Part shown: positions 4,247 to 62,830 of the stretch, piece after piece
Position numbering within the stretch: the stretch's first letter is position 1
How the letters are laid out: every line of letters starts with the position of its first letter
Assembly: GCF_028641065.1 (NCBI RefSeq)
Contig: NC_073405.1
Coordinates: forward strand, 14,508,001-14,572,000
From: Leucoraja erinacea
Lineage: Eukaryota
DNA: 64,000 nt
Direction of reading: 5' to 3'
Made by a program: the position numbers and the translations under genes
The notes under the pieces: generated by a model
What the model was told of the DNA's origin: nothing
What the model saw: the letters and a program-made list of their open reading frames with translations, nothing else
Database searches by the model: none

Positions 4247-4462
4247 CAACTCAGTGGGTCTGGCAGCATTTCTGGAGAAAAGGAATAGGTGATGTTTCAG
4301 GTCCAGACCCTTCTTCAGACCCTTCAGGCTGAAAAAGTGTCTCGACCCGAAACATCACCTTTTCCTTTTCTTCAAAGATGCTACCTGACCCGCTAAGGTG
4401 CTCCAGCATTTTGTGTCTATCTTCAGTGTAAAACAACAGCATCTGTAGTTCCTTCCTACACA
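4247..4462. mobile_element. Penelope pseudo-LTR hairpin (two inverted hammerhead-like modules)
   Basis: Minus-strand gtctgaagaagggtctggacctgaaacatc (~4290-4320) abuts plus-strand ctgaaaaagtgtctcgacccgaaacatc (~4329-4357); arms are reverse-complementary. Confidence 0.75.
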
Positions 4463-4487
4463 ATGCATCTACATTTACACCTTGGTC

Positions 4488-4489
<2 letters not shown>

Positions 4490-4526
<37 letters not shown>
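4490..4526. repeat. (TA)n microsatellite, target of tandem Helitrons
   Basis: Pure TA run directly adjoining the Helitron CTAG terminus. Confidence 0.95.
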
Positions 4527-4527
<1 letters not shown>

Positions 4528-4976
4528 TAGACCAAGTGCAGACCCATTGGGTCTGCTCCTCCAACGCACCCGTTCCCTACCCATAGCCCCCACGGGTGAC
4601 GAGGTCCTCCAACTCAAGCCGTTCCCGAACATAAGATACCAGCACTCAGCAGTGCGGCTGTTTTTAAATGGCGTCTTTGAGGCGAGAGGCGGGCGCCAGC
4701 AGCCGTTATGGTCGCTGGCCAGCAGGAGGCGACAAAATGAGTGAATGGGGGCGGGGGGAGAAAGGTTTTATTAAAAATGTGTACATAAACACGACAAAAT
4801 TTAATCAGGAGCGGATACTTGGAATGAAAAGTGAAATCTCTACCAAAATGGAAAAAATCTAGGCGTTTCTGCGTCTGGTGTTGGCGTAGCAACGAATCAA
4901 AGGCTGGCACCCACAGGCTGGCAACCACAAGACAGGCAGAAACACACACACACACACACACGGTTTTAAATATAGA
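4527..4976 (-). mobile_element. Non-autonomous Helitron
   Basis: On minus strand: 5' A|TCTATATTTAAAA, 3' hairpin CAGACCC-AAT-GGGTCTG then CACTTGGT-CTAG|T. Inserted between A and T with no TSD. Confidence 0.8.
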
Positions 4977-4992
4977 TAGTTTTATATATATA

Positions 4993-5664
4993 CTAGACCA
5001 AGTGCAGACCCGTTGGGTCTGTTCCCCCAACGTGTGGTTGTGTGGGGGAGGCGGCTTGCAGCGTCACACACACTAACTACCCCCCCCCCCCCCCCCCCCC
5101 CCCCACTCACCCTATTTCCCCCCCTTGATATTATTTAAATATTTTGATTTTCCCCCTTTTCCCCCTAGGAGAGGAGGGGAGGAGGAAGAGATGGGAGGGG
5201 GGGAGAGAGAGGGATAGGGGGGGGGGGGGGAGAGAGAGAGAGTGTTTTTACTTCAATTCAAACCCAAACAACTATTTGCAGGCAGTGCTTTTTTACCTCT
5301 AACCATATTTTCATTTTCAAACCAAATTAAGGGTACTCACAGTGCTGAAGACATTTGTCAGTGTCATTCAAAGCTCTGATTGAGGCACACCACTTGCAGA
5401 GACTGATTGAGGCACACCACTTCCTGGTTTTATAGTCGCTCCCCCTCCTTCCAGCAGGGGCAGCAGAGAGAATGGGGAATGTTGTACAAACATTAATATC
5501 TCTGTCAATTTTCATCGACGGGAAAAATCCTCGGCACACACGCAGCGGAGGGGGGCTCTGAGCGAGGTGGCCAAAAATGGCGGCCGTAGGTGGCGGCGTA
5601 CTCTCGGAAATCGCAGCAAGGAAAGCCGGAACCGGTCAAGAACAGAGTTTTAGTAATATATAGA
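4993..5664 (-). mobile_element. Non-autonomous Helitron (second, tandem)
   Basis: On minus strand: 5' A|TCTATATATTACTAAAA, 3' hairpin CAGACCC-AAC-GGGTCTG, CACTTGGT-CTAG|T. Confidence 0.85.
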
Positions 5665-6421
5665 TGTATATATCACAAACAGGTCCCAAGAAAGTGCTGC
5701 TTTTTTGATCAAGAAAGGATAGTTTGAAGGGCATGTTTCTATGCTCTTTCTCTCTCTAATTTGTTCCCAAACGCAGCTACTGCCTATTTTAGATTTGTGG
5801 TTAAGAGACCTTGTGGTTAAGGCTCCTTTGGAGAGGTGTGATCAAAAAACTATTTAACCTTAGAGACAATGTGAGAACAAACACCTTGGATTTAAAATAT
5901 AAATATCTTCAACTTAAATAAGACCAATTACAAAGCTATAAAGTTGTCAGGGCTGGGCTGGGGAAATAGGGTTAATGAAAGACAAGTAGATAAGTAGAGA
6001 CAGGTCAAGGATATCTTGTAGTGGGTACAGTACATTCTGGAAGAGAAGGGTGAGCAGACAGAGGTCACAGTCCATATTGGCTCTTCCAACATAAGTATGA
6101 ATAGAGATGCGGTCCTACGAAGGAATTTAGGCAGTCAGCTGAAAAGTTGAAAATGAAGACCTTTAGGATTGTAATCTCAAAATTACTTGCGGTATCACAT
6201 AGCAATGAGTATCGAATTAGAATTATACTGCATTAAAACATGCCCTTTGGCCCAATTCATCCAAGCTGACTGAAAGGCCAAAGTATACTAATCCCATTTG
6301 AAAATGTTTAGCCCATAACCTTCTAAATCTTTCCTGTCCAAATAACTTTTTAAAGTTGAAATTATTTTTTAAAATGTTGTTGTCAGAAGTCAGAGGGGAG
6401 TGGCGGAAAGGTCTTATTCTG

Positions 6422-6562
6422 TCTTCTTCTTCTTGGGTATGACGTGCGCAGCCTACAGTTGTTGGACAACTTGTTCTATTTGATCTTATTTGATTGTGCA
6501 CGTTGGGTTGATTGCATTCGTCGAAACAGGGCGGACCACATGAAGGTTGCAATCTTCCACCC
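6422..6562 (-). mobile_element. Short retroposon 3' end with (GAA)n tail (RTE-like)
   Basis: tcttcttcttct tail on + followed by ~140 bp of CpG-retaining sequence; non-coding. Confidence 0.45.
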
Positions 6563-6614
6563 CGCTGGATGTGGGTGACCAGTGGATTGTCCACAGGGAT
6601 CAATTCTGGCATCT

Positions 6615-7226
6615 CTTTTGTTTGTGATATTATATACGCACTTTATTTTGGAGTTAGCCAATCTTCCCTTGCACGTCTCCAGTTGGTTCAGAATGCTGCT
6701 GCTCGCCTTTTAACTGGAACACGTAAGAGGGAGCACATAACGCCTATTCTGGCCTCCCTCCACTGGCTGCCTGTGTACTTTAGAGTTCATTTTAAGATTC
6801 TTTTGTTTGTTTTTAAATCTTTAAATGGTCTCGCCCTGCCTTACCTCTCTGAGCTGCTTCATCCCTACGCTCCTGCTTGGTGCCTCAGGTCAGCTGATCA
6901 GCTGCTCCTGGAGGTACCGAGGTCTAAGCGGAAGCTCAGAGGGGATAGAGCCTTCTCTGTTGCTGCTCCGACATTATGGAACACTCTACCTTTGCACATT
7001 AGACAGGCCCCTTCACTGTCCATTTTTAAAACCCTTTTCCATTCCTTGGCTTTCGCCCCTGCATGAGACTTTGCTCTTGTTTTAGTGTTTCTATTATTGT
7101 TTTTTATTGTTTTTACTGTCTTTTAATGTTTTTATTGTTTTATGTTTATGTCATGTACAGCACTTTGTTGCAACAGTAGTTGTTTTTAAAGTGCTCTATA
7201 AATAAAGTTCAGTTCCGTTCAGTTCA
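6615..7226 (+). mobile_element. L2 LINE 3' end
   Basis: LQLVQNAAARLLT...HITPILASLHWLPV...GDRAFSVAAPTLWNTLP, followed by a T-rich UTR, AATAAA and a short (GTTCA)n tail. Confidence 0.9.
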
Positions 7227-7227
7227 A

Positions 7228-8490
7228 TATAATGATTTGGATGAAAATGTAGATGGACGAGTGAGTAAGTTTGCAGCTGACAAAAAATAAATAAGATAAT
7301 CTAATCTCATCTACCAATAATTATACCCCATCTGTTATTTCTCTGATCCATATTCTCTCCATTCCCTGCCTATCCATGTGGCTATCTAAAAGCCTTGTAA
7401 ATGCTACTTTCTACCTCTACCACCACCTCTGGCAACGTTGTCCAGACACCAGCTATCCTCTGTGTAAAAAAGATTGACACTCACAACTCTAAACTTTCCC
7501 CCTCTTACCTTTAAAACGATGTCCTCCAGTCTTTAACATTTCCACTCTGGGAAAAGGGTTCTGGCTGTTTACCCAATCGCTGCCTCTCATAATTTGTATA
7601 TACTTCCTTCAGGTCTCCCCTCAACATCTGGCATTCTGGAGAACTCAATCCAAGTTTGTCCAACCTTTCCCTCTTACAAAAGTCAATTTGCTACAGTAAA
7701 TCACCTTGTGACCTAACCTTCTGGAACAACCTACCAAACCTTCATGAAAGATTTGGCTAAACTCCATGTAAACATCATCCACCAGCTTCTTGTTATTGAG
7801 AGAGGCAAGTGAGGAGGTTGCAGCGGCCTTGACGAATATCTTTGTCTTCTCTAGCCAGAGATGAGGTCCTGGACGACTGGAGAGTAGCCACTGTTGTTCG
7901 TTTGTTTAAGAAGGGAAGTAGAAATAATAGACCATGAGCCTCACATCTGTGGTAGGGAAACAATTGGAGCGAATTCTTTGAGATAGGATTTACTTCCACT
8001 TTGAAGGGAATGGGCTAATTAGGGACAGTCCCAGCAGGTCGTGTCTTATTGAGTTTTTGAGGAGGTGACGAAGGTGATTGATGAGGGTAGGGTGGTTAAT
8101 GTTATCCATTTGGGTTTCAGCAAGGCATTGGTAAAGTTCCCCATGGGTAGGCTGATCCAGAAGATTAAGATGCAAGGGATTCACAGTGACTTAATCATAT
8201 CGAATCAGTACTGGTTTACGCATAAAAGCAGAGGATTGTGGTGGAAGGATAATATTCAGGCTGTAGATCTGTGACCAGCAAGGTTCTGCATGGATCTGTG
8301 CTGAGACCTCTGCTATATATGTATATATAAATGACGTGGACATAAATGTAGACTGGTTGGTTAGTAAGTTTGCTAACGACACCAAGAGTTGCACACAGTG
8401 CGGAAGGCTGCCAACGTATACTGTGGGGTGTAGATCAGCTACGGAAATGGGTAGAATAAAGATCAGATGGAGTTTAATCCAAACAAATGT
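7228..8490. mobile_element. Mosaic of old CR1 fragments in both orientations
   Basis: RT remnants (KVIDEGRVVNVIHLGFSKA; SKFANDTK) on +, and 3' UTR-like sequence on - at ~7300-7680. Confidence 0.7.
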
Positions 8491-8519
8491 CAAGGTTGTG
8501 CAGTCACTTCCTTCATACC

Positions 8520-8920
8520 ATATCTACCATATCACATCACTGGATGATTCCCCCAAGAATCTTGCACCTCAGCACTAAAGTTATGTCTTCCCTTATCAAA
8601 AAGGCAACAACCCTAACTGCATCTCGATCATATACAGGGTCCATCATGGGTCTGACCTCCCCACCATCAAACAGGAGTCGCAGCCTCAAAAAGGCAGCCG
8701 GCATCATTAGAAACCCACACAACACACTAATTTCACTCCTGCGATTGGGAAGAAGATATAGGAGCCTAAAAACTGTAACATCCAGGTTCAGGAACAGCTT
8801 CTTCCCGAAAGCCATCAGGCTATTGAACACTACAACCTCCAAATAAGCACTGAACTACATAGACGTGGGGGCATCAGTTTTGTCTTTTTGCACTATTATT
8901 ATTTGTTTATTTGTTTTATG
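8520..8920 (+). mobile_element. Old Rex1/Babar-like LINE 3' fragment
   Basis: LKKAAGIIRNPH...GRRYRSLKTVTSRFRNSFFPKAIRLLN, homologous to the C-terminus of ORF 14675-15439. Confidence 0.7.
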
Positions 8921-9673
8921 TGTGTGTATGTATGTATGTATGCATGTATGTATGTACGTACATATATGTATGTATGCCCTGAGTTTGTCCGCCTTAAACC
9001 TCTCTTGTTTCTTTCCTCACTCTTCCCTACCTGTCGTGTTTGCTAACCTACCATTCTTTGACTACAATATTTGCCCACAAATTCTCATCTGCCTCCCTTC
9101 TACTCTGGGACCCTCCTCGCTGCCAATTTAGTTTAAAGCCTCCCAAGTGGCACCATCAAATCTCCTCGGGATATTGGTGCCATAACTCCAAGCACAGTAA
9201 TAGGCACTTCGCCCACAATGTCTGTGCTGAACATAACAAGACCAACTCATCTGCCTGCACATAATCCATATCCTGCATTGCCATGTATTTATTCTAAAGT
9301 TTCTTAAATGCCACAATCATATTTGCCTCCACCACCACCCCAACAGTGTGTTCCATGGACTCACCACCCTCTGTATAAAATAATTTGCCCGGCACAACTC
9401 CGTTAAACGTTGCTCCTCGCACCTTAAAGCTCTGCCCTCCAGTATTTGATATTTCCATCATAGGAAATAGATTCTGACTGCCTACCCTTTCTATGCCTCT
9501 CATAATTGTAAATACTATCAGTCTCCCCTCAAAAAGGCAGGAGAGGTTCGGGGGACGTTGTTACTTCAAATTGGAGAATTCAACGTTCATACCGTTGGGT
9601 TATAGGCTACCCAAGCGGAATCCTGTAAAGCTGCATTATGGCTTCTTGACTCTTATACTCGATGGCCAACTTA

Positions 9674-10619: not shown

Positions 10620-10935
10620 TTTGTGTAGGAAGGAACTGCAAATGCTGGTTTACACCAAAGTGAGACACAAAATGCTGGAGTAACTCAGCAGGTCAGGCAG
10701 TATCTCTGGAGAAAAAGAATAGGTGACATTTTGGGTCGAGACTCTTTTTCAGACTCAAACACATAGGTTGCTATTTGTTTGTCCAATAACGCCACCTGGT
10801 GGAGACACAGAGACTGCAGGTGCTGGCATCTTGAGCAAAGCCAAACTGCTTGAGGAACGCAGCAGGTCAGGCAGCATCTGCGGAGGAAAGGGATGGTCAA
10901 TGTTTTGGGTAGAGACCCCGCATTAGGACTGAGAG
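10620..10935 (-). mobile_element. Two degenerate Penelope pLTR/hammerhead-like modules
   Basis: Both contain gcagatgctg...actcagcaggtcaggcagcatct-type sequence and decayed cores (gtctgaaaaagagtctcgacccaaaatgtc). Confidence 0.65.
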
Positions 10936-11089
10936 TATAGAGGGAAGATAGGCAGCTTATGACAGTGAGAGAGAGGAGTGAGGAGAAGACTGGCAGATAG
11001 ATCATGGAATAGTACAGCACAAGAACAGGCCCTTCAACCTACAGTGTCTGTGTTGAACATGATGCCAAGATGATAGGTATAAACAGATA

Positions 11090-13870: not shown

Positions 13871-13981
13871 ATCTTGCCTTCCTTATCCCTCCTCCTTACT
13901 AGAACATGTTGATCCTGCACTTTGATCAGATGGCCTTTAAACAACTCCCACATCTCGTCTGTGGACTTCCCTAATAACAAA

Positions 13982-14275
13982 GGTAGACAGAAATTCTGGA
14001 GAAACTCAGCGGGTGAGGCAGCATCTATGGAGAAAAGGAATAGGCGATGTTTCGGGTCGAGACCCTTCTTCAGACTGATGTCGGGGGTGGGGGAGGGGGA
14101 GTGGAAACAACAATAAACGCTCCCAATTTACACTCCCTAGCTCCTGCCTAATAACATTAGGCCCGGCCTGAAACGTGGCCTATTTCATTCGTTCCATAGA
14201 TGCTGCTGTACCCGCTGAGTTACTCCAGCATTTTTGTGTACCTTCGATTTTCCAGCATCTGCAGTTCCTTCTTAA
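13982..14275. mobile_element. Two separate Penelope-derived hammerhead-like module insertions (13982-14100 minus; 14160-14275 plus)
   Basis: Core CTGAAGAAGGGTCTCGACCCGAAACATC on minus at 14046-14073. The second module is flanked by aataacatt/aatgacatt. Confidence 0.7.
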
Positions 14276-14507
14276 AAATGACATTGAAATCTCCTTCCCC
14301 CCCCCCTAATTAGGTACCTTCCCTTAACATCCAGACTTATCCCTATTCAAAACCATCCTTCCTTTCCTCCATGGAAAATAGTCACACCCTACTCAGAATC
14401 GCCTCATAATTCAAGCCCCCTAGCTGTGAGAACATGCTTGTGCATCTTTTCTGCACTCTTTCTTGCTTAATCACCTTAGTGTGGTGATCAGAATTGTTAC
14501 CAATATT

Positions 14508-17605: not shown

Positions 17606-17620
17606 ACTACATGTTTTAAG

Positions 17621-17744
17621 TGTTCAAGAAGGGACTGCAGATGCTGAAGGGTTGAAGAAGGGTTTCGGCCCGAAACGTTACCTATTTCTTCGCTCCATAG
17701 ATGCTGCTGCACCCGCTGAGTTTCTCCAGCATTTTTGTGTACCT
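17621..17744 (+). mobile_element. Solo hammerhead-like module with 13-bp TSD
   Basis: TACATGTTTTAAG at 17608-17620 and 17745-17757. Core TTGAAGAAGGGTTTCGGCCCGAAACGTT preceded by an inverted piece of the module tail. Confidence 0.8.
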
Positions 17745-18889
17745 TACATGTTTTAAGATTGTTTTTGAATAGGACCATGTGCAAAATATGCCATGTTTTG
17801 GCACCATTTTGTAAGTCAAAGCTGCACAAAGACCCATTCCAGCCATCATCCTCCATCTGGATCGCCAGTGTTCTGACATCCACTCTCGTCTGGCCTTCAG
17901 CCTTCGTGCCTCGGGTGCTTCTTAAGGTACAGTGTTTTGCATACTGTCTAGAGATCAGATATACCATACATAGATAAAAATGAGTTCAAACTCACACACA
18001 ATAGATAGAGCAAAGGGGAAGATGCAGAGTGCAGAATACAATTCTCTGCATTATTGTGTAATGTAGTGCACCAGTTCCTTAGACAAAGCCCAATGTCCTC
18101 ATTGGGGTAGAGGTGAATCAAACAGTACCCTTGTTTATGGAAGGCAGATATATTAGTGGTGTTTAAGATGCGCATGTTTAGAATGGCGCATGAATATTCA
18201 GGGAACATATGGATCATGTGCAGGCAGAAGGGATTATTTTAATTTGGCTCAGATATCATGGGCGATAGGGCCTGTTCCTGTATTGAATTTTTCGACATTC
18301 TGAGTTCTAAAAAATTATGAAATGCGGGAAACAGTCTGATCCTCATACATTTTTGCTCTTTGCACAGATGTTGGCTGGCTTGCTGGGCGTTTCAGCAATT
18401 TCTGATTCTGCTTTAGCACAATCGGCTGTTCCAATTGTTGGCACCAGGGGGTGGCATTGTGGTGTGTGAAGATGAGAACACGAGTTGGTTGGAAAGGGAA
18501 AAGTGAGGCAGGTGGGTGAGCCATTCAGTTTCTCCATCCTTTTCCAATTATGCTCATTGAGGTGGTGCTGATCGGTGAATAAAGCCCAAACCATGGAGAA
18601 AGTAATCTTGCCCTTTAGACTTGCTGTCCAAAAGAAATGTAATTTTCCTGTCTGCCTGCCAGTGGAATCACAGTAACTTAATTCAGACCCTGAATTTGAA
18701 TTGTAGAATCATACAAGCCTGTCAGTCCACTGAGTTGCTGCTGATACCATGTGTCCATCTGCACTCATTGTGCACTAACACCCCTCAACTCCCCCCCCAA
18801 ATCCTACCCCTCATCCACACAACTGGCATGATTTACAGTGATCAATTATCCCAGCAATCTGCACATCTTTGGGATGTGGGAGGAAACCA

Positions 18890-29960: not shown

Positions 29961-30831
29961 CAGAAACATGAGCGTGAAGGCCACACTGACAAGAGCTATA
30001 ACTTTAGAACAGCTTTGGTCAGAGTTGGCTGGTCGGCACCATGTCCATGCCGACAACAGCTATTTAGATTGTAACGGCTCCACAACACTCGGTGCATAGT
30101 ACCGTGGGCCGTGGCTCATCAAACGATCGTCCAAACACACTTACATACGATGACGGCTCCCGTCTCCAACACTCTGCCAGGCCCAGTTCCAGCTGCCACT
30201 ACTCTTTGGTGAAAAATAATTCTTATTCTCCTTTAATCGTTCTCCTAATTAATTTTGACTTGTGTTAGGTTTAGGACAGCAGAGTGTTATCAGTGATAGA
30301 GCTGCTATCTCATGGCACCGATGATTTAAGCTTAGTCCTTTGGTGACCTGTGTGGGATGAAAAGCTACTTCCAGTGAGCACATAGGTTGCCCACCGGTGC
30401 TCTGCTTTATTCCTATATCTAAAGGTCAGGTTGATAAGTTGATTGGGGTCTGCAAGTTATTTCTCCCATGTATGTGAGTAGTAGAAAGTAGACAAACAAA
30501 TGCTGGAGAAACTCAGCGGGTGAAGCAGCATCTATGGAGAGAGGGAATAGGCGACATTTTGGGTCAAGACCCTTCTTCAGATGATAGAAATGCAAGAAAA
30601 TAAATAGAATTGTGTAAACAGATGGTGTGGGTGAAGTGCAGGGCCTGTTCCTGTGCTGTATGACTGTATGGGGCCCCCAAGCTATCAATTAATCATGGTT
30701 AAGATAACGAGAAGCATACACAGATCTGGTCTGAGGTCTTGTGTGCAGTTTCAGCATGACCTGCCTGCATTCATATTTTATTCCTCAGCCAATAAAGTCA
30801 TATTCTGCCATCTGATTAGCTTGAGGGATGT

Positions 30832-30958
30832 TTAAGAAGGAACAGCAGATGCTGGAAAATCGAAGGTAGACAAAAATGCTGGAGAATCTCAGCAGGTGAG
30901 GCAGCATCTATGGAGCGAAGGAAATAGGCAATGTTTCAGGTTGAGACCCTTCTATAGA
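30832..30958 (-). mobile_element. Solo hammerhead-like module with 12-bp TSD (another solo copy at ~30490-30582)
   Basis: CTTGAGGGATGT at 30820-30831 and 30959-30970. Insert starts at the decayed core gtctatagaagggtctcaacctgaaacatt. Confidence 0.8.
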
Positions 30959-35120: not shown

Positions 35121-35435
35121 CTTATTTATGTATCTATCTGCTCATGATAGATCTATCTGCTCATTTCCCACTGAGATTCATTGCTAATGATGGCACAACA
35201 GCCACCAATAAGAACATTGTCCACATTCAGGATTTCCCAACTGAACTTATTCCATAGAAATCTTGGAAGCCAATTATCTGTGGCCGGCCACCTGCCCTGT
35301 CTTGTTGACAGGAACTCTTGCAGTCCAACAGAGTCAAACCAGCATCATTACCCCACTGTTTCCTTTACATTTCAGCCATCGCCTGTCCAATGTCGTTTCC
35401 TAATCTGCCCCAGCCAACTTGCACTTCTTATTGGT

Positions 35436-36553
35436 GGTAGACACAAAATGCTGCAGTAACTCAGCGGGTGAGGCAGCATCTATGGAGAGAAGGAATGGGT
35501 GATGTTTCAGGTCGAGACCCTTCTTCAGACTGATGTTAAGGGAGATGCAGGACAAAGATAGAATGTAAGCAGGAAATGAGTTCCCCTCTTCCATTATAGA
35601 TGAGGCTTTCACTAGAATGTAGAGACAGTAAGACTAGTGGGAGAACTGGGAAGGGGAAGGAGAGAGAAAACAAGGGCTATCTGAAGTTTTTAGAAGTCAA
35701 TGTTCATACTGCTGGGGTGTAAATTACCCAAGCAAAATATCCCTTTGGAGGTGGCGGAAATGTTGGAGGACCAACATTTTTGCCACCTCCAATGTGATCC
35801 CACTACTAGCCACATCTTCCCATCTCCACCCCTTTCTGCTTTCCGCAGAGACCGTTCCCTCCGTAACTCCCTGGTCGACTCGTCCCTTCCCACCCAAAAC
35901 ACCCCTTCCCTAGGTACTTTCCCCTGCAACCGCAGGAGATGCAACACCTGTCCCTTTACCTCCCACCTCGACTCCATCCAAGGACCTAAACAGTCTTTCC
36001 AGGTAAAGCAGCGGTTCACTTACACCTCCTCCAACCTCATCTACTGTTTCCGCTGTTCCAGGTGTCAACCTCTCTACATCGGCGTGACCAAGCGCAGGCT
36101 CGGCGATCATTTCGCTGAACACCTCCGCTCAGTCCGTCTTAACCTATCTGATCTCACAGTGGCCCAGCACTTCAACTCCCCCTCCCATTCCCAATCTGAC
36201 CTTTCTGTCCTGGGCCTCCTCGATTGTCAGAGTGAGGCCCAACGCAATTTGGAGGAACAGTACCTCATATTTCGCTTGGGTAGTTTACACCCCAGTGGTA
36301 TGAACATTGACCTCTCTAATATCAGATAGCCCTTGCTTTCTCTCTCCTTCCCCTTCCCAGTTCTCCCACTAGTCTTAATGTCTCCACCTATATTCTATCT
36401 TTGTCCCGCCCCCTCCCCTGACATCAGTCTGAAGGGTCTCGACCCGAAACGTCGCCCATTCCTTCTCTCCATAGATGCTGCCTCATCCGCTGAGTTACTC
36501 CAGCATTTTGTGTTTACCTTCGATTCTACCAGCATCTGCAATTTTTTCTTACA
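35436..36553 (+). mobile_element. Penelope-like element 3' part with inverted pLTR arm (35436-35735) and GIY-YIG ORF remnant
   Basis: ORF 35700-36329 has CNRRRCNTC, NLIYCFRCSRCQPLYIGVTKRRLGDHFAEH and LHPSGMN. The left arm is the reverse complement of the 3' end; both arms carry the hammerhead-like module. Confidence 0.9.
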
Positions 36554-36815
36554 CTTCTTCGACTTATTTCCTTCATTTAGATTGAAAACCAAGGTTTCAG
36601 ATTAAACGGGTTCATTTCTGATCTTCATGTAAAATTCTGTAATATACATGGTCTCTTTACCCTGTGGCCCTACTGTAACAAGATCACCTTGTACAGAACC
36701 AGCTCTAATGTAGACACACAAGAAACTGCAGATGCTAGAATTGTGAGCACAACACAGTGCTTAAAAAACTCAGCAGGTCAGGCAGATTTGTGGATCTGTC
36801 ACCTTCATTAGATCA

Positions 36816-36911
36816 GTGTGAAGAAGGGTCTCGACCCGAAACGTCGCCCATTTCCTTCGCTCCATAGATGCTGCCTCACCCGCTGAATTTCACCAGCATT
36901 TTTGTCTACCG
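36816..36911 (+). mobile_element. Solo 96-bp hammerhead-like module with 11-bp TSD
   Basis: TCATTAGATCA at 36805-36815 and 36912-36922. Insert begins GTGTGAAGAAGGGTCTCGACCCGAAACGTC. Confidence 0.85.
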
Positions 36912-37659
36912 TCATTAGATCATATCAACCTACAACTATTTGTACCATCATTTCATCAAAATTGATAAAATACTTGGACTAATCAAAATATATCACAAGC
37001 TGTTAGACAAACATGGGAAGAAATAACAATGGTTCTGATTATGATATTCTGGCTACACACTGATGCCAAGGGGGTGAAAGACTGTTATTATGGTGTCATG
37101 GTTTAAGAAAGGGAGAGAGGATAGAGCATGTAATTACAGTTCATGTTACTATTGATGGTGGGTACATTATGTTCAGAAACCACGGAGGGCAGTGTAAAGC
37201 ATTGTGTAGAAAAGCAAAATGAATCCGCATGGTTTGTTTAGGGCAAAGATTCTAGAGGAGCAAGATAAACCACTCGACGAAAAAGCTGTAGGACGGTCAT
37301 GGGCTCATGGGAAATTTGTTTTGCGCCATTTTGTGAATCACTTATATGAGGGGGGTTTTTTGAATGGGCCTCTGTCATGGCGTCTCCTCTAGAATCTTTG
37401 GTTTAGGGAATGTTCTGTCTAGCAGTGTTGAATGGATTTTAATGAGGTGGTGGTTGACAAGGGGAGCTGTTAAGGACAACACATTTTCTATCATCCACTT
37501 AGATGTTAATAAGCAGTTCGATCTAATGCAGGATTTTGGCAAAATCCCATATGATCTGAAGAAAATAGCAAGTTTATTTAAGAACCGAGTGTCCTGGTTG
37601 TGTGACTTGATACATTATGCCAGGCATTGATCCTGGTTGAGGATTAACATCGTTCTTGC

Positions 37660-40335: not shown

Positions 40336-42177
40336 AGCTACATTGACTAACAGGACAGCACATTAATGTATAAAGTCAAAGAGACATCAAGCAGCTTGAA
40401 GAGAGTTTAACTTGTCCATGTTATCTGCAGGGAGAGAGTGTCTATCGTTGGACTATGGACATCCCTGATAAGCTGAATTCTTGGAATCTTGTCAGCCAGA
40501 GTGTCATTGGCCAGCACTTTGCACCTCACCAACCTCCTGCACACTGCACACAGAGGCAGCTGGCAAAGCTAAACGACCAAAAGGCTAAGCAAGACTATTC
40601 CATTTGCTAATTCCCCTCATTAGCTTACTTTGTGCAACCGCTGATTACTAACTGCTCTCGTCTTTATTTTCAGTATAAATTATCTTGAAAGGAAAAAAAT
40701 GGGCTAATTTCATATTTGTAAACTAAATTGACAAAATGGGCAGATGGGTTTAGCCCCTTGGTATCAATCTGTCAACTGTGTGAATATCAGGCAATTCATT
40801 GTCCCACCACTTCACAGTCTAATTGTGAGGAGACCAGTAATTGGGAAAGACTAGGGAGGTTGGCATCACAGGGCCTGAGATCGGAGCAGTCAGAAATATA
40901 GAAACAGGAACTGCAGATGCTAGATTATTAAAAAAATATTGCTGGAGTAATTCAGCACGTTAGGCAGTATCCCCATGGGACATGGATAGGTAATATTTTG
41001 GGTTGCGACCCTTCCTGAGACTAATTGTGTGTGGAGGGTGGGGAGAAAGCTAGAAGAGAGGAGAGGAAGGACAAAGCCTGGCAGCAATATTTGGAGAGCA
41101 GAGCAGTACAGGAATCCAAGTGTTAAGGGCAGGTGAGGTGGGGGTGGAAATTACAGGACTCGAATAAGTTCAAGGTCATAGAATCATAGTTATACAGCGC
41201 AGAACCAGGCCCTTCAGCCCAACACATGCTGATCTAGGGTGATGGAGGAACTGAAGGAAATACACATTAGTCAGGAAATGGTGCTGGTTAGACTGATTGG
41301 ATTGAAGGCTGATATCTGCTCCAGGTCGGGAATTCTGCACCACCTACGGAAAAATTTGACATACAGAACTTTTGCCACGACTGTAAAAAATTTAATCACT
41401 TCATGAAATGTTTCCATTCTTGTGCGACTCATTCCTCACCAAGACAAAAATATGCACCTGTTAATACAAGAACCTACTGATAACGAGTTTCAAGAGATGG
41501 ACGCGGCATTCCCTGCTCTCCTCCCTGTGAGCCAGGATAGCAGTTCAGCCATTCACTCTCTCGCGCCCAGTTGCTGCAGAACAACCACTGACCGTGCCCC
41601 CTGCAGCTCTCCACAGCGTTCGGCACCCTACTCGCCAGCTTCGCAGCCTCAACTCTACGGGTCCCCAGTGCCGTCCCTGGTGAAAGGAGGAGACGCGGAT
41701 TTATACCGCCCGCACGCACACCGGATGGGTCTGTAGGCCACCTTTTAGATATGGAGATTGTGTAACCATCCATATGTCACTGTATGCGTTATTATCGTTT
41801 CGGGTACCGTACTATTTAGCCATCACTTAGTGTTTCTGCTTATTGGCACTTGAGTTGTGCTTTATTTCATTTCTACAAGGAAAGATGTAGATTGGTTACT
41901 TCATACTAACCAATTGTAGTGCTCTATTAGTAGAAGCTCTGCCTACTACGCGATTTATATCATCAGAATCCAGTTCATACAGTCAGTTGGAGTAGCTGTT
42001 ACGCTTGCCTTAACATTATGCTGAAGTGTACTGCGAGTAGACTTTAATAAATATGTTGCACCATGTTGTGCAAGTGACTGACCTTATTACAGTTGTCAAG
42101 TAAAAGATTGGTTAATTAAGAACATCCTCTTGGAGATATGTGTCATTGTTTTAACAAAACTTATGCTTTATGAAGAA

Positions 42178-45979: not shown

Positions 45980-46172
45980 CTAAAGATACACATGAAATGC
46001 CGGAGTAACTCAGCAGCTCAGGCAGCATTTCTAGAGAAAAGCATTAGGTGATGTTTTGGGTCGAGACCCTTCTTCAGACCTCAGCCTAAAGAAGGGTCTC
46101 AACTCAAAATGTCACTTAATGCTTTTCTCCAGAGATGCTGCCTGATCCCTTGAGTCACTCCACATTTTTGTT
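45980..46172. mobile_element. Penelope pLTR hairpin (two inverted hammerhead-like modules)
   Basis: Arms ~46005-46080 and ~46085-46160 are reverse-complementary. Confidence 0.75.
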
Positions 46173-46626
46173 TTAAAGCATCCATGTTTTGGGCATTTTT
46201 AATTCACACCTCATCCTTGGTGCCTATATAATTTTTCAGTTAATTACATCATAACAATGTCCTGGGGCAGGGTTTTAATCATTTTGCAAAATGTATTCAG
46301 ACTACTTTGATCTGGTGGTGTTGCCTTTGTCAAGAATTCAATGTCACTTCTGCGCCTTCATGGGGGTCAAGGAAAGAGCGTTCACGTTGCGGCCCTGTTT
46401 TCACCAATCTTTTCACCACCACACACCAGAAGCGACAAGACAGACACCATTGTAATGCAGATGCCGGGAAGTGTGTTCAGCTCTGGCTGAACACCTTCTA
46501 ATCTTGTATGTGGACTCAATAAGAAGCACCTTCATACCCACTCAGGTTTCCCATTGCTTACAAACTGAATACGCAGAAGTTTTTTTCCTATTAATAACAT
46601 CTTTTAAGATTGAGGCAAAGGGAATC

Positions 46627-46721
46627 GGAAGAAGGGTCTCGACCCAAACTGTCACCCATTCCATCCCTCCGGAGATGCTGCCTGTCCCACTGAGTTACTC
46701 CAGCTTTTCGTGTCTATCTTC
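46627..46721 (+). mobile_element. Solo 95-bp hammerhead-like module with 6-bp direct repeat
   Basis: GGAATC at 46621-46626 and 46722-46727. Insert begins at the core (ggaagaagggtctcgaccc). Confidence 0.65.
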
Positions 46722-47799
46722 GGAATCTATCTTTCCCTGCCTTTCTCCACTCAGTTGAAGTGTTAACATTCCCATTTACCTGCTGTCTAATCTACTTCCT
46801 GAGGAAAAGAAAGGTGCCAAAATCTAATGTATGTATTTCACCAGCCAATACTTGCAGATCTATTGTTCAGACAGGAGGAGCTAACTGCCCTGTTGTGCCT
46901 TGCTATCATCAGGTTGTAGGATATGGTCAGCAGCTTCTTTAATGCCCCTAGGAAGGAATTATGGAGTCATATAGCATGGAAACAGGCCCTTGTCCCAACT
47001 TACCCATGCCGATAAAGATGCCCCATCTAAGCTAGTCCCATTTGCCCTGCATTTGGTCCTTATAGCTCTCTAAACCTTTCCTATCCAGGTACCTACCCAA
47101 ATGTAATGGAGTAATTGAGGGCTACAGCACGGAAACAGGTGCTTCAACCCACCATGTCTGTGACAATTGTCAACCACCATTTTTGCTGCACAATATCAGT
47201 AGCAGAGTGTGCATTACCCTAGGAGCAAGAAAGAGCACCGTCCCTCCTCACAAACGGCTGAGGGATGAATTAACCTGATCACTCTGACTGGAGACAAACA
47301 ATGAATCAACGTAGAAGGGCTGTAATAGGAGCCGTGGGAAAACCAGTCTTGGGCAGGCTAGTTGAACAGCAACAGAACAACTTTAGTACAGTAAAATGCC
47401 TCACAGAAGCTTTAATGAACGATTTAAAAATGGACTAATTAGATCGTAAAACATAATGTAAAATAATGCTGCAGATGATGGAAATCTGAGCCAAAACAAA
47501 GACTCTGCAAATCAGACAAGAACCATGGAAAGAGAAACAGTTTGTTTGTCCGAACAAAAGAAAGCAAAGTAAGTTTTAAGTTGCAGGGTAAGTGGGTAAG
47601 GGGTGGATGGGATAAAGGGGAAATCTGTGATAAGTTGGGACCACACTTGTTGTGGGGATGGAATAGTAATGGGGCAGTTGGGGAACTGAGCCAAGATCAC
47701 AGGTGAGTGGGTAACTTTGCCACACAGCAGTTTTAATCCAGACAGAAAAAGTGGGTTAGCAGAGGTTGGAGAATCCAATAGTATTTGGAAGGCTGTAGG

Positions 47800-48300
47800 G
47801 TAGATAGAAAATGCGATGCTGGGAATCACTGTATTGGGCCTAATTACAGCAATGAAGGCTGCTAGAGACAGATAGATCAGAGTGGAGTGGTCAGCTGAAT
47901 TAAAGTGTAAGGCAAAAGGAAGGTCAAGGTTACTCTGTGAACTAACACAAACCGAGAAGCCCAATTTGCAGATGGTTTCTCCAAAGCAGAGACCACATGG
48001 TGAATATTGAATGCAGCTGATCGCTTCTTCACCTGGAAAGACTGTTTGGATCCCAGGATGATGGGGAGGGAAGAGGTGAAAGGACAGGTGTTGCTTCGCC
48101 TGACTTGCATTGAAAAGGGTAACATGATGGGGGAGTAGTTGGTGGAGATGGAAGAGTGGACCTGGGAATCACCAGGGGAGGGATCCACGAAACGCTGAGA
48201 GAGCAGCACGTGTCTGATGGCAATCCTTTTGGAACGGTGGAAATTGTAAAGGATGATTCCCTGAAAACAGAAGTTAGTGGATTAGAAGACCAGGGGAATT
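47800..48300 (-). mobile_element. Old Penelope GIY-YIG region remnant
   Basis: NTCPFTSSLPIILGSKQSFQVK, HFNSADHS. Confidence 0.7.
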
Positions 48301-48570
48301 CTGGCTTCAACATAGCTGATGTTGTTTATATGGATTTTAGTAGGCTATTTGCTAAATTCTTTCATGGGTGTTACGAGTGTTATTTTGGAAGTGTTTTTTT
48401 GGCTGGACATCTATGACCAGCACAGTTCTGAGGGTAGATAGTGTAGGCAGGAACTGCAGATTTGAAATTAAATTGAATCTGAATCAGATGCTGGTTTACA
48501 CCAAAGATAGACCACAAAATGCTGGAGTAACCCAACGGGACAGGCAGCATCTCTGGAGAGAAGGAATGGG

Positions 48571-48600
48571 TGACGTTTCGGGTCGAGACCCATCTTCAGA
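48571..48600 (-). ncRNA. Minimal type I hammerhead ribozyme-like motif (intact core)
   Basis: CUGAAGA-U-GGGU(CUCG)ACCC-GAAAC-GUC. Helix III is reduced to palindromic ACGU; helix I is weak. Confidence 0.6.
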
Positions 48601-56700: not shown

Positions 56701-56875
56701 TTATTTCATATGTTGGTCTGAACCTGACACCCGAGTTCCATATTCTACCATTTCTCAACATCTTTGCTATCTTCAGCTCACAAAACATTTGGTGGGGGAG
56801 GACTGGTTAGATTATCAATGTTTCTCTGCCCCCAGTTCTCAGGACTGTTTGCAGTTCATATATCATATCATATCT

Positions 56876-59030: not shown

Positions 59031-59969
59031 GACCTAATCAAAACCTCTACAAGATCAACTCTCAGCCTCCTACGCTCCAAGGAGTAAAGTCCACTCCAAA
59101 CCCTCCCAACAGCTCAGGCTCTCAAGTCTCGGCAACATCCTCATAAATCTTCTCTGCTCTTTCCAGCTTAATGGCATATTTCCCAATACAACCACCAAAG
59201 CTGAACACAATCATCTGTGTGGTCTCACCAGTGTCTTGTACAATTGCAAGTACAGTTCCATGACTGATGAAGGCCACATACTAAAAGTCTTCACCACCTG
59301 ATCTATCTGATACGCCACATTCAGGGAACTATGTTCTTGTACTCATAGATCCCTCTGCTTTCTCTCATTCCCAGGTATCTACATTATGAAGATCATGCCC
59401 TGGTTTAACTTCCCAAATTGCAATGCCTCATACTTAGAGGAAGAAGATTGGACTTTATTACCTTCCATCACAGTGAGGAATGTGGGGAATCCGCTGAGTT
59501 GATGTTTATGTTAACTTTTATGTAGTTGTGTGTTGTGTTGCTTTTTTTTTAGTATGGCTGTATGGTAATTTGAATTTCACTGTACCTTAATTGGTACACG
59601 TGACAATAAACTGACCTTGAAACCTTGAAACCTCACCTGAATTAAATTCCATTAGCCATTCCTTAGCCACTGAGTAACCTGGATGGTGCTCAAGAAGCAG
59701 AAGTTGCTACCAACCTCTATGGTGATGAAGTGATTAAGAGGTGTGTTATGGTCCATATCCACTCCTACCTTAACACAAACCTGCACCTACTACAATCTGC
59801 CTGCTGTCACAAAAGATCAATGGGAGATGTGATCTCGCTGGCTCTCCACTCTGCGCTGGACCTCTTGGACAATTAGAACACATACATCAGGCTGTGTTCA
59901 TTGACGGGACACAAAAAAGCTGGAGAAACTCAGCGGGTGCAGCAGCATTTATGGAGCGAAGGAAATAGG

Positions 59970-60000
59970 TAACGTTTCGGGCCGAAACCCTTCTTCAGAC
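59970..60000 (-). ncRNA. Minimal type I hammerhead ribozyme-like motif (intact core) in a 96-bp solo insertion (59906-60001)
   Basis: CUGAAGA-A-GGGU(UUCG)GCCC-GAAAC-GUU. Insert flanked by ATTGAC at 59900-59905 and 60002-60007. Confidence 0.65.
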
Positions 60001-60218
60001 TATTGACTACAGTTAGGCATTCAACAGCATCATCCCCTCCAAACTTGTCACCAAGTCCAGGGAACTGTCTGCGCATCCCTTTGCAACTGGATCCTTGACT
60101 TCCTCACCAGCAGGCCACGATAGGTACAACCTGGATAACAACACCTCCACCTTGTTAACCATCAGCAAAGGGAAACCTCAAGGCTGTGCGACCTGTCCCC
60201 TGCTCTATTCACTCTATA

Positions 60219-61256
60219 TAGGTATGTTACAAAACCTACCTGAATCGTGGCTGAGCATCTGCCCCACCCCTTGTGTGTGATTTTGGCGCTGTTTAGAGGG
60301 GGCGGGTTTAAAACGCAATTTTTACTAGGCTGTTCCAATCGAAAATGTTCAGCCTAGTAAATCATTAACGGAAAATCGCTGAAAGACCCCGTCGCAAAAG
60401 GTATTATTAGTTTTTATGGCCTTGTATAATATTTATAGTAGTTTAAAAATCACTCTCTCACTCCGCAACCTCTCGCAGCCCCAGGGTTTTATAAAGCAAA
60501 CAATTAAAGGTATGTACCTTATTTTTACATAAAATGGGGCTTCTTAAGAACCCTGTATATAAAGTTTTCTATAGCGAGTAGCTCATTTTGGGCTCTTTAT
60601 ATCCCGCAGTATTTTTCTGGGCACTTGAGGGCACAAATCCAGCGCAATGTGAACGTTCTAAACCAGCGCGTTCACAGGAACACACTAGAAAGCCGATTTA
60701 AATTGACTTTAATTTAGAGCAAATGAACACTAAATTCCTTCCATTTGGCCTATAAATTGATGTAGATGAGATTTAAAAATCATGTTTTATTGTGAATTAT
60801 TTGTGAATATTATTTGGACACTTGGGCTATTTAAAAATGTTAATCATTTATTAAGAAATGGATAGATGTTTAGTTCGGTAATTGAAGTTTGAAATTAGCT
60901 ACAATTGGGTAACTAACTAATTATATGCTTTAATTTCAGGTCATCCAAGTAAGATTATTTTATATTTGTTTCAGAATGCTTCAATCTATGATAACTGAAA
61001 ATTTCATTCAGTTCTCTTAATTTTTAAGAAGGTTATGGGCTTTTGACTGTCCACGATCACAGCTTTTTTGTTATGTCCATAGAAAATCAATAGGGAACAA
61101 GATGCTAATTTCCGAGTATGAAAATGGCCATAACCTTTTTATTACTTGAGCTATGAAAGTGAATTAGGTGTCAAATTAAACTTATTGTTATGCTTTATCT
61201 GATGGGATAAATTGCAGACTTGATTTTTTTAATCTCAAAATTTTGTAACATTGCTA
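60219..61256 (+). mobile_element. Complete non-autonomous hAT-like DNA transposon (1038 bp), copy 2
   Basis: Imperfect 16-bp TIRs TAGGTATGTTACAAAA / TTTTGTAACATTGCTA with a 7-8 bp duplication ((A)CTCTATA) of the Rex1 target. No ORF. Confidence 0.9.
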
Positions 61257-61395
61257 CTCTATACTCATGACTGTGCAGCCAGACCCAGCTCCAACTTTAA
61301 ATTCACCTTTAAATTCACTGACAACAGCATCATTGTTGGACGGATTATGGATAATGATGAGTCAGAGTATAGGAGAGAGATCAATCAGATGAGAT

Positions 61396-61782
61396 TGAAA
61401 CTTACAAAATTCTTAAGGGGTTGGACAGGCTAGATGCAGGAAGATTGTTCCCGATGTTAGGGAAGTCCAGGACAAGGGGTCACAGCTTAAGGATAAGGGG
61501 GAAATCCTTTAAAACTGAGATGAGAAGAACTTTTTTCACACAGAGAGTGGTGAATCTCTGGAACTCTCTGCCACAGAGGGTAGTCGAGTCTAGTTCATTG
61601 GCTATATTTAAGAGGGAGTTATATGTGGCCTTTGTGGCTAAGGGGATCAGAGGGTATGGAGAGAAGGAAGGTACGGGATACTGAGTTGGATGATCAGCCA
61701 TGATCATATTGAATGGCGGTGCAGGCTCGAAGGGCCGAATGGCCTACTTCTGCACCTAATTTCTATGTTTCTATGTTTCTAT
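61396..61782 (+). mobile_element. Young CR1 3' end
   Basis: Near-identical to 3775-4160 with (TTCTATGT)n tail. Confidence 0.92.
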
Positions 61783-62489
61783 GAATGTTGTGAGAACAAC
61801 AACCTTGCTGTCAATGTCAGTAAGACCAAGGAGCTGATGCTGACTTTAGAAGAGGAAGGCCGAGATACACAAAGCTGTCGTCATCGATGGGTAAGGGATG
61901 GAGGGAGTCAATATCTTCAAGTTCCAGGCCGTACATATCTCTGAAGATCTTTCCTGGACACAGCAACATTGATATAATCATAAATAAAACCCATCAAGGC
62001 CTCTACTTCCTGAGAAGGATTGAGGAGATTTGGCATGTCGATGAATACTCTCTGGAACATTTACAGGTGTACGCTAGAGATTATATTGACCAATTACATC
62101 AGAGCCTAACTCGGCAACATGAACTTCCAGGAGCGAAGGATAAAAGTGATGGAAGCTGCCTGGACCATCATGTTGACAGTCCTCCCCCCAATCAAATGGA
62201 TCTATAGGAGGCGCTGCCTGAAAAAGGCAGCCAGCATCATCAAAGACCCACAGCACACTACCCACCCTCTCATTTCACTCCTGCCAGGGGCGCCACTGAC
62301 TTTGCCAGAACTGTGCAGGCAGGTCTACAGTTCCTTCGTGTGGTGGTGCTTGTTTCAGCTCCAGGCAAAGAGCAGCCAACATTCCTAACAATCTTGAAGC
62401 CGCATGTTTACTTTCCTGATCTAATTGTCCCTCTGCCAATTAGCTTGTGACTCGGGTTAAGCTCCTTAGAGATCAGGCTTTTCAGCTTT

Positions 62490-62830
62490 GTCTAGGAAGG
62501 AACTGCAGATGCTGGTTTACACTGAAGATAGACATAAAAAGCTGGAATGACTCAGCAGGTCAGGCAGCATCTCTGGAGAAAAGGAATACGTGACGTTTCT
62601 GGTCAAGACCCTTCTTCAGACTGAGAGTCAGGGGAGAGGGGTCTGGTAACCAGGAGATCGCTTTGATCAAGGTAGATTGAAGGAAGGTGTTCAGCAAAAC
62701 GATTGCCCAGTCTGCGCTTGGTCTCACCTGGAACAACGGATACAGTTGATGAGGTTGGAGGAGGTGCAAGTGAATCTCTGCCTCACCTGAAAGGACCCTG
62801 TTGGGGTCCCTGGACAGAGTCAAACTCCTC
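62490..62830 (-). mobile_element. Penelope 3' fragment with hammerhead-like module
   Basis: GIY-YIG-adjacent remnant (~62650-62830) and core CTGAAGAAGGGTCTTGACCAGAAACGTC at 62592-62619. Confidence 0.75.

Follow-up and report, generated by a model that had tools for sequence, protein, structure and literature searches.

A dispersed pseudo-LTR repeat with a minimal hammerhead motif, probably of Penelope-like origin, in the skate Leucoraja erinacea

A short repeat dispersed through a 64-kb stretch of Leucoraja erinacea DNA (the window, with positions counted from its first letter) is very probably the end-piece of a Penelope-type retrotransposon, carrying a minimal hammerhead already known from such elements. 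With similar assurance, the repeat can be assigned to the pseudo-LTR of a Neptune-type skate Penelope-like element (PLE), its first ~32 nt constituting a minimal type I hammerhead ribozyme (HHR) motif and its copies stemming from uncleaved RNA. The parts of this explanation that were observed are the identity of the sequence, its place in the PLE, the copy boundaries, the target duplications and the decay.

BLASTN and nhmmer searches locate 20 copies in the window (Table 1), about one per 3 kb; 19 have a placeable core, of which 18 were aligned for core scoring, and the twentieth is the remnant at 36720-36811. Searches of the reversed window, used as a control, gave a best match of E 3.7, and weak profile matches at 21818, 43531 and 47469 (E 0.3-0.6) were left out of the count. 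Profiles of the downstream part only and of the tail only (nhmmer) returned nothing new at E<0.01 except one inverted tail, 17621-17646. A prior sequence-only reading had proposed about 15 copies; the module is present at all 16 positions it quoted, and its list lacked 10926(-), 14160(+), 41019(-) and the remnant. Alignment of the copies bears out the consensus given there, including the reduction of helix III to an ACGU tetramer and the single extra nucleotide after A9, an A in the consensus and present in 18/18 aligned copies. The description of a "very high-copy elasmobranch version" holds for the elasmobranch host, the best named match of the host gene being a skate; "very high copy" is drawn from a single 64-kb window. 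The repeat may already bear a Dfam or Repbase name, and a shark or skate motif has possibly been published.

Table 1. Repeat copies and associated features in the window. C3 is the position of that core base; site 1 is the nearer of the two 3' ends.
Feature	Positions	Strand	C3	Details
Head-to-head pair, left arm	4239..4320	-	4318	Core intact, tetramer decayed, 3' end shortened
Head-to-head pair, right arm	4324..4463	+	4329	Tail present
Solo unit with tail	10620..10755	-	10752	13-nt flanking duplication, one mismatch, 10 nt filler
Old divergent copy, 3' UTR and tail	10800..11019	-	10926	Helix I letters differ yet pair (3 bp); N7=U; three core changes
Copy with ~24 nt upstream UTR	13980..14097	-	14073	Core intact, tetramer decayed, no tail
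Copy starting inside helix II, with tail	14160..14279	+
Inverted tail plus unit from HHR edge to site 1	17621..17745	+	17652	C3 position mutated
Inverted tail within the preceding	17621-17646	-
13-nt target duplication of the 17621..17745 insertion	17608-17620 and 17745-17757
Solo unit, no tail	30484..30584	-	30580	G12A
Solo unit with tail	30831..30958	-	30957	12-nt target duplication ends 1 nt before C3
PLE insertion, inverted arm	35436..35768	-	35528	ORF end, 3' UTR, HHR; ends at site 1, no tail; core intact, tetramer decayed; internal deletion; hairpin junction near 35768
5'-truncated PLE ORF remnant	35769..36329	+		C-X4-C-X2-C linker and GIY-YIG, Neptune/Nematis-type layout
3' UTR/pseudo-LTR, HHR module and tail	36330..36554	+	36429	Three core bases missing
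Old remnant with tail	36720..36811	-		Most of HHR missing
Solo unit, no tail	36816..36910	+	36818	C3G; 11-nt target duplication ending 2 nt before C3
Old divergent copy, 3' UTR and tail	40897..41118	-	41019	N7=G
Second head-to-head pair, left arm	45981..46079	-	46077
Second head-to-head pair, right arm	46081..46175	+	46086
Solo unit, no tail	46625..46722	+	46626	Three core changes
Solo unit with tail	48441..48600	-	48599	~29-nt insertion interrupts tail; helix I is a single base pair; core, helix II and ACGU retained
Short solo unit with intact motif	59905..60001	-	59998	Runs from 3 nt before C3 to site 1; flanked by a 6-nt duplication, at that length not significant by itself
Sole fully intact minimal HHR motif	59969..60000	-	59998	Core, extra A, helix II 4 bp with U.G, ACGU; helix I 2 bp; H17=U; cleavage predicted between 59971 and 59970
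Copy with tail	62487..62821	-	62619	Core intact, helix II closing pair broken
Deleted piece of PLE endonuclease ORF before copy C3 62619	62685-62821	-

The proposed Penelope pseudo-LTR origin is upheld by the position of the module in a 3' pseudo-LTR, 100 nt after a GIY-YIG ORF on the same strand. This ORF shares 57-65% identity with five named proteins of sharks and rays, in which a domain scan finds RT and GIY-YIG in two and GIY-YIG only in three. The ORF remnant gives a weak Pfam GIY-YIG match (E 0.04-0.05) and is 64% identical to P0001, which carries RVT_1 and GIY-YIG; RT is absent from the window. Its GIY-YIG domain is preceded by a C-X4-C-X2-C linker, conforming to the CX2-5CxxC criterion for Neptune taken from PMC8557442, a linker that Nematis also has. 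On this linker the parent would be a Neptune-type PLE. The module was said to terminate the element at 35436-36553; the element does carry it at its own 3' end (36429), in a copy without three core bases, but the repeat continues for a further 92 nt in the left arm and ~125 nt in the right. A candidate 8-nt target duplication, picked out by eye, lies close to both outer ends of 35436-36554, with an offset of 6 nt at the left. No full-length tandem PLE with two direct pseudo-LTRs occurs within the 64-kb window.

Identity of the motif as a minimal HHR is borne out by three exact matches to the core pattern, versus none in 100 dinucleotide shuffles, and by the equality of the repeat head with the metazoan consensus built from 56 motifs, as given in the text of Fig. 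S3 of PMC4209133. All 11 core bases of CUGANGA ... GAAANNUH, in type I order, are present in the skate consensus and in 6/18 copies. The extra base after A9, a palindromic helix III, a short helix I and dispersed single motifs are published traits of PLE minimal HHRs (PMC4209133), and the extra base and ACGU palindrome are family traits rather than oddities. Decay is extensive: as had been cautioned, most copies (12/18) carry a core change, and core, helix II, palindrome and helix I are intact together only in 59998(-). The G10.1-C11.1 pair is retained as G-C or G.U in 17/18 copies, and the 4-bp helix II, inside the 3-7 bp range of PLE minimal HHRs, is paired in 95.8% of cells, with one-sided changes only. 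The UUCG/GCCC subfamily is indeed seen, in 17652 and 59998; pairing is kept there through a one-sided change from U-A to U.G. The 15.1-16.1 tetramer remains palindromic in 6/18 copies, most others being CpG decay products, and CpG decay also strikes the core freely.

Helix I, earlier put at 2-3 bp, is natively 2 bp, a U-A or U.G pair plus a G-C pair; longer stems are confined to 4318, at an inversion junction, and to the old copy 10926, where two pairs have changed in letters with pairing kept. The published descriptor, with helix I of at least 3 bp, does not match the native stem and finds one match, from junction letters; relaxed to a 2-bp stem I, it passes four copies. Because PMC4209133 accepts 2-bp variants among its listed minimal HHRs (6/56, all with G-C pairs), the skate stem fails the descriptor and not the family as its authors drew it, although it is weaker than those six examples. 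No Rfam hammerhead model matches at E<=10 in the whole window and two local searches. Mismatches are fewer in the core than in the flank (7.8% vs 14.1%), a difference that is not significant (p=0.07-0.09), and covariation lies within shuffles (167/500).

When the best copies are folded in silico, the core is sequestered by an alternative, non-ribozyme hairpin (-12.2 vs -0.3 and -9.4 vs -4.2 kcal/mol), and with downstream sequence included the helix II probability is near 0 (copies 48599, 59998 and 36818). Thermodynamic co-folding of two copies yields no active dimer, in a model that is unable to represent one. The stability of the alternative hairpin (z +1.2 to -2.0) is not above that of shuffles in most copies and its covariation is within shuffles (31/500); selection on it is unsupported by either measure.

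The repeat has two alternative 3' ends ~35 nt apart: among 19 copies, nine end at +85 to +96, nine carry the tail and one is cut short. An optional 30-40-bp tail and two RT start sites have been described in PLEs (PMC8557442, PMC11167929). Target duplications of 13, 12 and 11 nt were found (null P(>=11)=0.003), and each of the three inverted pairs has a tail on one arm at most; tail, inverted 5' arm and short target duplications are all PLE hallmarks. The sequence-only reading missed the 5' boundary: homology is lost 0-9 nt upstream of C3 in 12/19 copies, and most copies are therefore SINE-sized units (95-135 nt) that probably arose as run-off cDNAs, with priming inside the 5' pseudo-LTR. Peptide read-throughs in other records (62 peptide matches) suggest a 5' boundary zone broader than one start site; a peptide search with the read-through of copy 14073 gave no match among 13 candidates. 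None of 19 copies starts or ends at the scissile bond, which rules out self-cleavage as the setter of copy boundaries. The 64-kb window contains no intact head-to-tail pair, same-strand neighbours being separate mutated insertions.

For the mechanism, we infer the priming sites, the RNA 5' end and any cleavage. The ancestral motif would have cut after C/U17 only when two motifs paired via their ACGU palindromes and, judging from related motifs, probably only with protein help. Genomic copies would be insertions that were dead on arrival, for which the PLE endonuclease and RT used uncleaved RNA as the template. RT may start at either of two internal sites, ~92-96 and 122-134 nt downstream of C3, the choice giving copies without or with a tail. 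Priming in the 3' pseudo-LTR would yield long copies with UTR and ORF, and priming near the RNA 5' end the common 95-135-nt units, whose 5' edge lies immediately upstream of the HHR and most likely coincides with the transcript 5' end. Head-to-head pairs could come from priming on both target strands or from fold-back. A doubtful extension is that the two fixed 3' ends and shared 5' end preserve, across the genome, the history of internal priming and of priming on two strands by an RT of the Neptune clade, and that the ribozyme stays trapped in the alternative hairpin until RT binds.

The strongest challenge contests activity only and not origin: a motif of PLE hammerhead descent could be catalytically dead in the recently active skate subfamilies and kept as promoter, RT-binding or hairpin sequence. 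We consider this a real possibility, though we lean against it. The weak 2-bp helix I of three young subfamilies, versus 3 bp in old copy 10926, speaks for it, as does the dominance of the competing hairpin among predicted folds; Naiad PLEs proliferate well without an HHR (PMC8557442), and 8/9 Xenopus dimer elements showed no cleavage (bioRxiv 2026.07.22.740005). The shuffle comparisons of that hairpin argue the other way, and subfamily-diagnostic changes fall in 0/10 non-CpG core columns vs ~9/49 flank columns (not significant), those at H17, 1.1 and helix II all being cleavage-compatible. Rather unlikely, in our judgment, is a self-propagating SINE-like, non-autonomous family in which HHR plus downstream pseudo-LTR serve as masters, with an internal promoter and PLE protein in trans. 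The nearly uniform 5' edge in 12/19 copies and the presence of short units in all three young subfamilies of the tree fit such a family, and precedents exist in the internal promoter of Penelope (PMC2377424) and in DNA mobilised in trans by solo pLTRs (PMC3846280). However, no subfamily is limited to short units, diagnostic letters are common to long and short copies, and run-off of an autonomous transcript is expected to give the same shape.

Instead of marking a transcription start, the shared 5' edge might reflect a feature immediately upstream of the HHR: a micro-hairpin at which RT stops or cDNA folds back, or a 3' splice site. We are similarly skeptical about this suggestion. A pyrimidine tract (73-80%) ending in YAG beside helix I occurs in 6/6 copies retaining upstream sequence, the D. 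virilis Penelope intron ends at helix I, two window pairs have head-to-head junctions at the edge, an inverted arm precedes the motif in 11/36 placed peptides, and palindromic junctions were interpreted as self-priming in PMC3846280. In three solo copies, however, the target duplication adjoins the unit 1-3 nt before C3, which leaves no room for an upstream exon or inverted arm and rules out a spliced exon for these copies. The same letters, moreover, also fit an Initiator pattern in 6/6. Highly improbable is an opposite-strand, tRNA-derived SINE with an accidental hammerhead likeness. Antisense words resembling the A-box and B-box, picked after looking, occur in 5/19 copies vs 13/5000 shuffles, and relaxed ARAGORN makes one pseudo-tRNA call. 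Default ARAGORN makes none, though, and relaxed settings give 1/19, 2/19 and 3/19 against nulls of 2.2%, 7.6% and 19%; no Rfam tRNA matches, copies reach 15-55 nt upstream of the would-be Pol III start, and ORF-bearing copies fix the polarity. With no tRNA-like head at a fixed 5' end (ARAGORN, Rfam), this origin is largely refuted.

Under the PLE pseudo-LTR reading, the ribozyme motif itself is expected, as PLE pseudo-LTRs carry it across animals. Relative to the species of PMC4209133, cartilaginous fishes are added as hosts of a dispersed minimal HHR family, in a form lying outside the published descriptor. More useful is the anatomy of the insertions, which bears on how PLE tails, inverted arms and solo pseudo-LTRs are made and on the purpose of the hammerhead. 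Given a dense family with sharp ends and target duplications, the models are testable by junction counts in one skate assembly.

Non-LTR retrozymes (PMC7229834; bioRxiv 10.64898/2026.07.22.740005) resemble the skate repeat in being non-coding and HHR-bearing, in a proposed PLE pseudo-LTR derivation and in dispersed monomers, and are reported in one chondrichthyan genome. They are, however, head-to-tail tandem repeats cut to circular monomers, whereas the skate window has no such array and the cleavage site bears no relation to where skate copies end. Poseidon of Anolis (PAc; PMC11167929) likewise has two internal RT start sites, lying downstream of the HHR and defining the tail, as well as insertions from uncleaved RNA; its HHR works with protein assistance and is not needed for insertion in vitro, and its copies are not bounded at the scissile bond. 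It belongs to another PLE clade, its ORF starts in helix II, and a shared 5' edge at the HHR, as in skate, is not known to be described for it. PLE minimal HHRs (PMC4209133) have in common with the skate family the type I order, the CUGANGA core with its extra base, the G10.1-C11.1 pair, a palindromic 4-nt helix III, a pyrimidine-rich 5' flank, a pseudo-LTR location and mostly single dispersed copies with a second copy nearby on the opposite strand. Differences are the absence of cartilaginous fish among the 40 listed species and the 2-bp skate helix I with one U-A/U.G pair, below the 3-bp descriptor. Those genomes hold 4,000-9,000 motifs each; the skate density, 20 per 64 kb by homology or 4 by the 2-bp descriptor, would far exceed theirs if the window is typical, in counts that are not like-for-like. 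For Neptune-clade PLEs (for example Acropora digitifera Neptune, PMC4209133; PMC8557442), the skate clade is placed by a linker that Nematis shares, and the common features are the C-X4-C-X2-C linker before a C-terminal GIY-YIG, the tail, an inverted 5'-truncated arm, a 4-bp helix II with a 4-nt loop, and ACGU.

The skate repeat is a real, expected hammerhead of a Penelope-like element (PLE) in a new host, and its copies are mostly decayed short insertions. The module, a minimal hammerhead-ribozyme-like motif (min-HHR) spanning the first ~32 nt of the repeat, lies 100 nt downstream of the stop codon of a GIY-YIG ORF remnant on the same strand, in keeping with the PLE pseudo-LTR origin proposed in the sequence-only reading. 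Its 10 protein matches include five named ones from sharks and rays, to which it is 57-65% identical, and a domain scan of the five recovers RVT_1 together with GIY-YIG in two and GIY-YIG alone in three. The remnant also contains a C-X4-C-X2-C linker, of the type that the available text of PMC8557442 describes as a mark of Neptune and Nematis PLEs. In the left arm of the parent element the ORF end and UTR recur in inverted orientation, with a hairpin junction near 35768. The last 20 residues of a named, predicted shark protein (P0003, Stegostoma tigrinum) are an in-frame read-through of the motif, its A6-N7-G8 codon (N7=U) giving Met, which shows that a shark PLE ORF too is followed by a related motif. 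The best named match of the MISP/PALM2-AKAP2-like exon in the window is from Rhinoraja longicauda (86%), followed by other rays (54-69%) and sharks (46-55%), which places the window in a skate.

In the available text of PMC4209133 (Cervera and de la Pena, 2014), PLE min-HHRs are defined by a CUGANGA core, one additional conserved base placed between 9 and 10.1, pairing of G10.1 with C11.1, a helix III reduced to a palindrome and a short helix I. The window consensus has every one of these traits, and the extra base after A9 and palindromic helix III noticed earlier are among them. The descriptor in that text, with helix I of at least 3 bp, matches only one window copy (4318, numbered like all copies by its reference core base, C3), owing to junction letters; four match if a 2-bp helix I is permitted. 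Such helices, all of G-C pairs, occur in six of the 56 min-HHRs listed in PMC4209133, a list from which cartilaginous fish are absent. The suggested comparison with Rfam hammerhead models yielded no match in the window. Exact core-pattern matches to the published consensus number three copies in the window versus none in 100 dinucleotide shuffles. A literature search, with most subscription papers outside its reach, returned nothing on the skate family or on copies that share their 5' edge at the HHR; Chondrichthyes appear in the available text of PMC7936874 only as a sample source.

All 16 module positions listed in the sequence-only reading contain the module. BLASTN with the element (35400-36620) as query, together with iterated nhmmer, gives 20 repeat copies in the window; C3 can be placed in 19 of them, and the other is an old remnant. 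The reversed-window control gave no match better than E 3.7. Profiles of the downstream part, tail or upstream UTR alone added a single piece, an inverted tail, with zero matches in their reversed control. With extents set by hand, the family occupies ~3.5 kb, or 5.5% of the window. Extrapolated from this one window, a density of 20 copies in 64 kb would amount to several hundred thousand in a genome of a few gigabases.

Among the 19 copies, nine stop 85-96 nt past C3, nine carry a tail to ~122-134 nt and one is cut at 79 nt. Three of the insertions are bounded by exact target duplications, 13, 12 and 11 nt long (null P(>=11 nt)=0.003), and a fourth has a 13-nt duplication with one mismatch; flanks of the remaining copies share just 5-10-nt words. 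One insertion combines an inverted tail with a sense unit, the shape expected were the two target strands to prime at both RT start sites of a single RNA, and three junctions with short re-copies of HHR 5' letters suggest a template jump at the RNA end.

Homology is lost 0-9 nt upstream of C3 in 12 of the 19 copies, continues into the UTR or ORF in six and starts inside helix II in one. The favoured reading of this shared edge, which we infer, is run-off at the RNA 5' end. Under independent uniform truncation the cluster has a P of 1e-6 or less, for a 7-nt zone chosen post hoc. Independence would fail for copies made from short masters, and it is possible, if rather unlikely, that the short units are such self-propagating masters. 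Three solo copies have target duplications that stop 1, 2 and 3 nt short of C3 (in the 3-nt case the duplication is just 6 nt), leaving no upstream exon or inverted arm. A pyrimidine tract with a YAG splice-acceptor-like word is present in 6/6 copies that retain upstream sequence, and the same word in all six also fits an Initiator pattern. The available texts describe D. virilis Penelope as having an internal promoter (PMC2377424) and an intron that runs up to helix I (PMC4209133). A profile of seven read-through peptides from the window finds 62 unnamed proteins at E<=0.001, of which 36 allowed placement of the motif (25 were dropped for want of a placement word and one as spurious); 11 of the 36 have an inverted arm directly upstream. 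Counting back from the core, the first residue agrees with the native letters in 27 proteins of the 36, the second in 21 and the third in 11. The boundary in these proteins thus appears to be some 10 nt wide and more diffuse than that of the window copies, a breadth that counts against one exact start site. That the repeat is instead a tRNA-derived SINE read on the opposite strand is highly improbable: A- and B-box-like words occur in 5/19 copies versus 13 of 5000 shuffles, but ARAGORN makes zero calls by default and calls at the null rate when relaxed, and the copies reach past the would-be start.

That the motif has lost its activity is given somewhat less than an even chance. In the aligned set of 18 copies, which leaves out the truncated copy 14150 and the old remnant, all 11 core bases are intact in six, as the earlier caveat about core mutations anticipated; two of the six retain helix II and the palindrome too, and one of these (59998) helix I as well. 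G12 is altered in 7/18, nearly always by CpG decay, as are the middle bases of the ACGU palindrome in 5/18 and 8/18, again nearly all by CpG decay (window CpG o/e = 0.37). Non-CpG mismatch rates are 7.8% in the core versus 14.1% in the flank, a difference short of significance (p=0.068, rank test; 0.089, permutation). Pairing holds in 90.7% of HHR helix cells versus 5-49% in slid controls; the proposed covariation test gave covariation within shuffles (167 of 500), and the helix II change of the UUCG/GCCC subfamily is one-sided. Old copy 10926 has other letters at two helix I pairs with pairing kept over 3 bp, the best structural hint, from a single copy. There is no sign of selection on the genomic copies. 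Folded with downstream sequence, copies 48599, 59998 and 36818 are predicted to form a long hairpin, pairing the 5' core and first helix II strand with bases after the cleavage site, with helix II probability near 0, while 14073 and old copies retain predicted helix II in several contexts. The hairpin's stability is unremarkable (z +1.2 to -2.0, six copies) and it has no clear covariation (31 of 500).

The window also holds a compact HDV-like ribozyme candidate, whose CPEB3_ribozyme score does not reach the gathering cutoff of 35 (E 0.012 over the whole window, 5e-5 locally). Its P1 has 6 bp ending in G.U, P2 pairs at 7/7 in a sequence that departs from the CPEB3 consensus, P3 is 3/3 paired, L3 is CPEB3-like, P4 is nearly absent and the junction reads C-N-A-A. 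It occurs once in the window, outside any surrounding repeat, and the literature search found no report of an HDV/CPEB3-like motif in sharks or skates. An RT fragment and its adjoining 1-kb repeat probably represent a young LINE-type family; other dispersed repeats are SINE- and CR1-like by appearance (D9/D14, with 10 copies, D19 and D6/D10/D16).

Features of the window, in window coordinates
Feature	Position	Strand	Remarks
Parent PLE insertion	35436-36554		left arm inverted
PLE ORF remnant	35769-36329	+
Further decayed PLE endonuclease fragment	59-517	+
Further decayed PLE endonuclease fragment	9570-9621	-
Further decayed PLE endonuclease fragment	47512-48281	-
Old repeat remnant	36720-36811	-
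Inverted tail plus non-overlapping sense unit, one insertion	17608-17757		inside 13-nt target duplication; tail at 17621-17646
Short HHR 5'-letter re-copies right before C3	4320-4328, 17647-17651, 46078-46085		by eye
Young unit at edge of old same-family copy	36805-36922		opposite orientation; 11-nt duplication
Large exon, MISP/PALM2-AKAP2-like gene	32133-34292	-
HDV/CPEB3-like ribozyme candidate	46363-46414	+	Rfam CPEB3_ribozyme 26 bits
533-aa RT fragment	663-2267	-	Pfam RVT_1 E 9e-36
1-kb repeat adjoining RT fragment	2237-3256, 60273-61262		inverted orientation; 96-100% identity

Retrozymes form tandem arrays according to the available texts of PMC7229834 and bioRxiv 10.64898/2026.07.22.740005, the latter reporting them from one chondrichthyan and deriving them from PLE pseudo-LTRs; the window copies form no such arrays. 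No intact head-to-tail HHR pair exists in the window. Single motifs are the rule among the thousands of min-HHRs per genome described in PMC4209133, and their dimer cleavage is described as low in its available text; the review PMC6765202 also summarises that cleavage. The inverted left arm and hairpin junction of the parent give the usual PLE insertion shape (available texts of PMC8557442 and PMC3846280). The two 3' end classes match the PLE tail of 30-40 bp, which is optional; in the Anolis element this tail is delimited by two internal sites at which RT starts (available text of PMC11167929). The scissile bond is the start or end of none of the 19 copies. In the Anolis element, by the same text, uncleaved RNA is the substrate and the HHR cuts only with protein present; the skate copies, whose ends lie apart from the scissile bond, resemble it.
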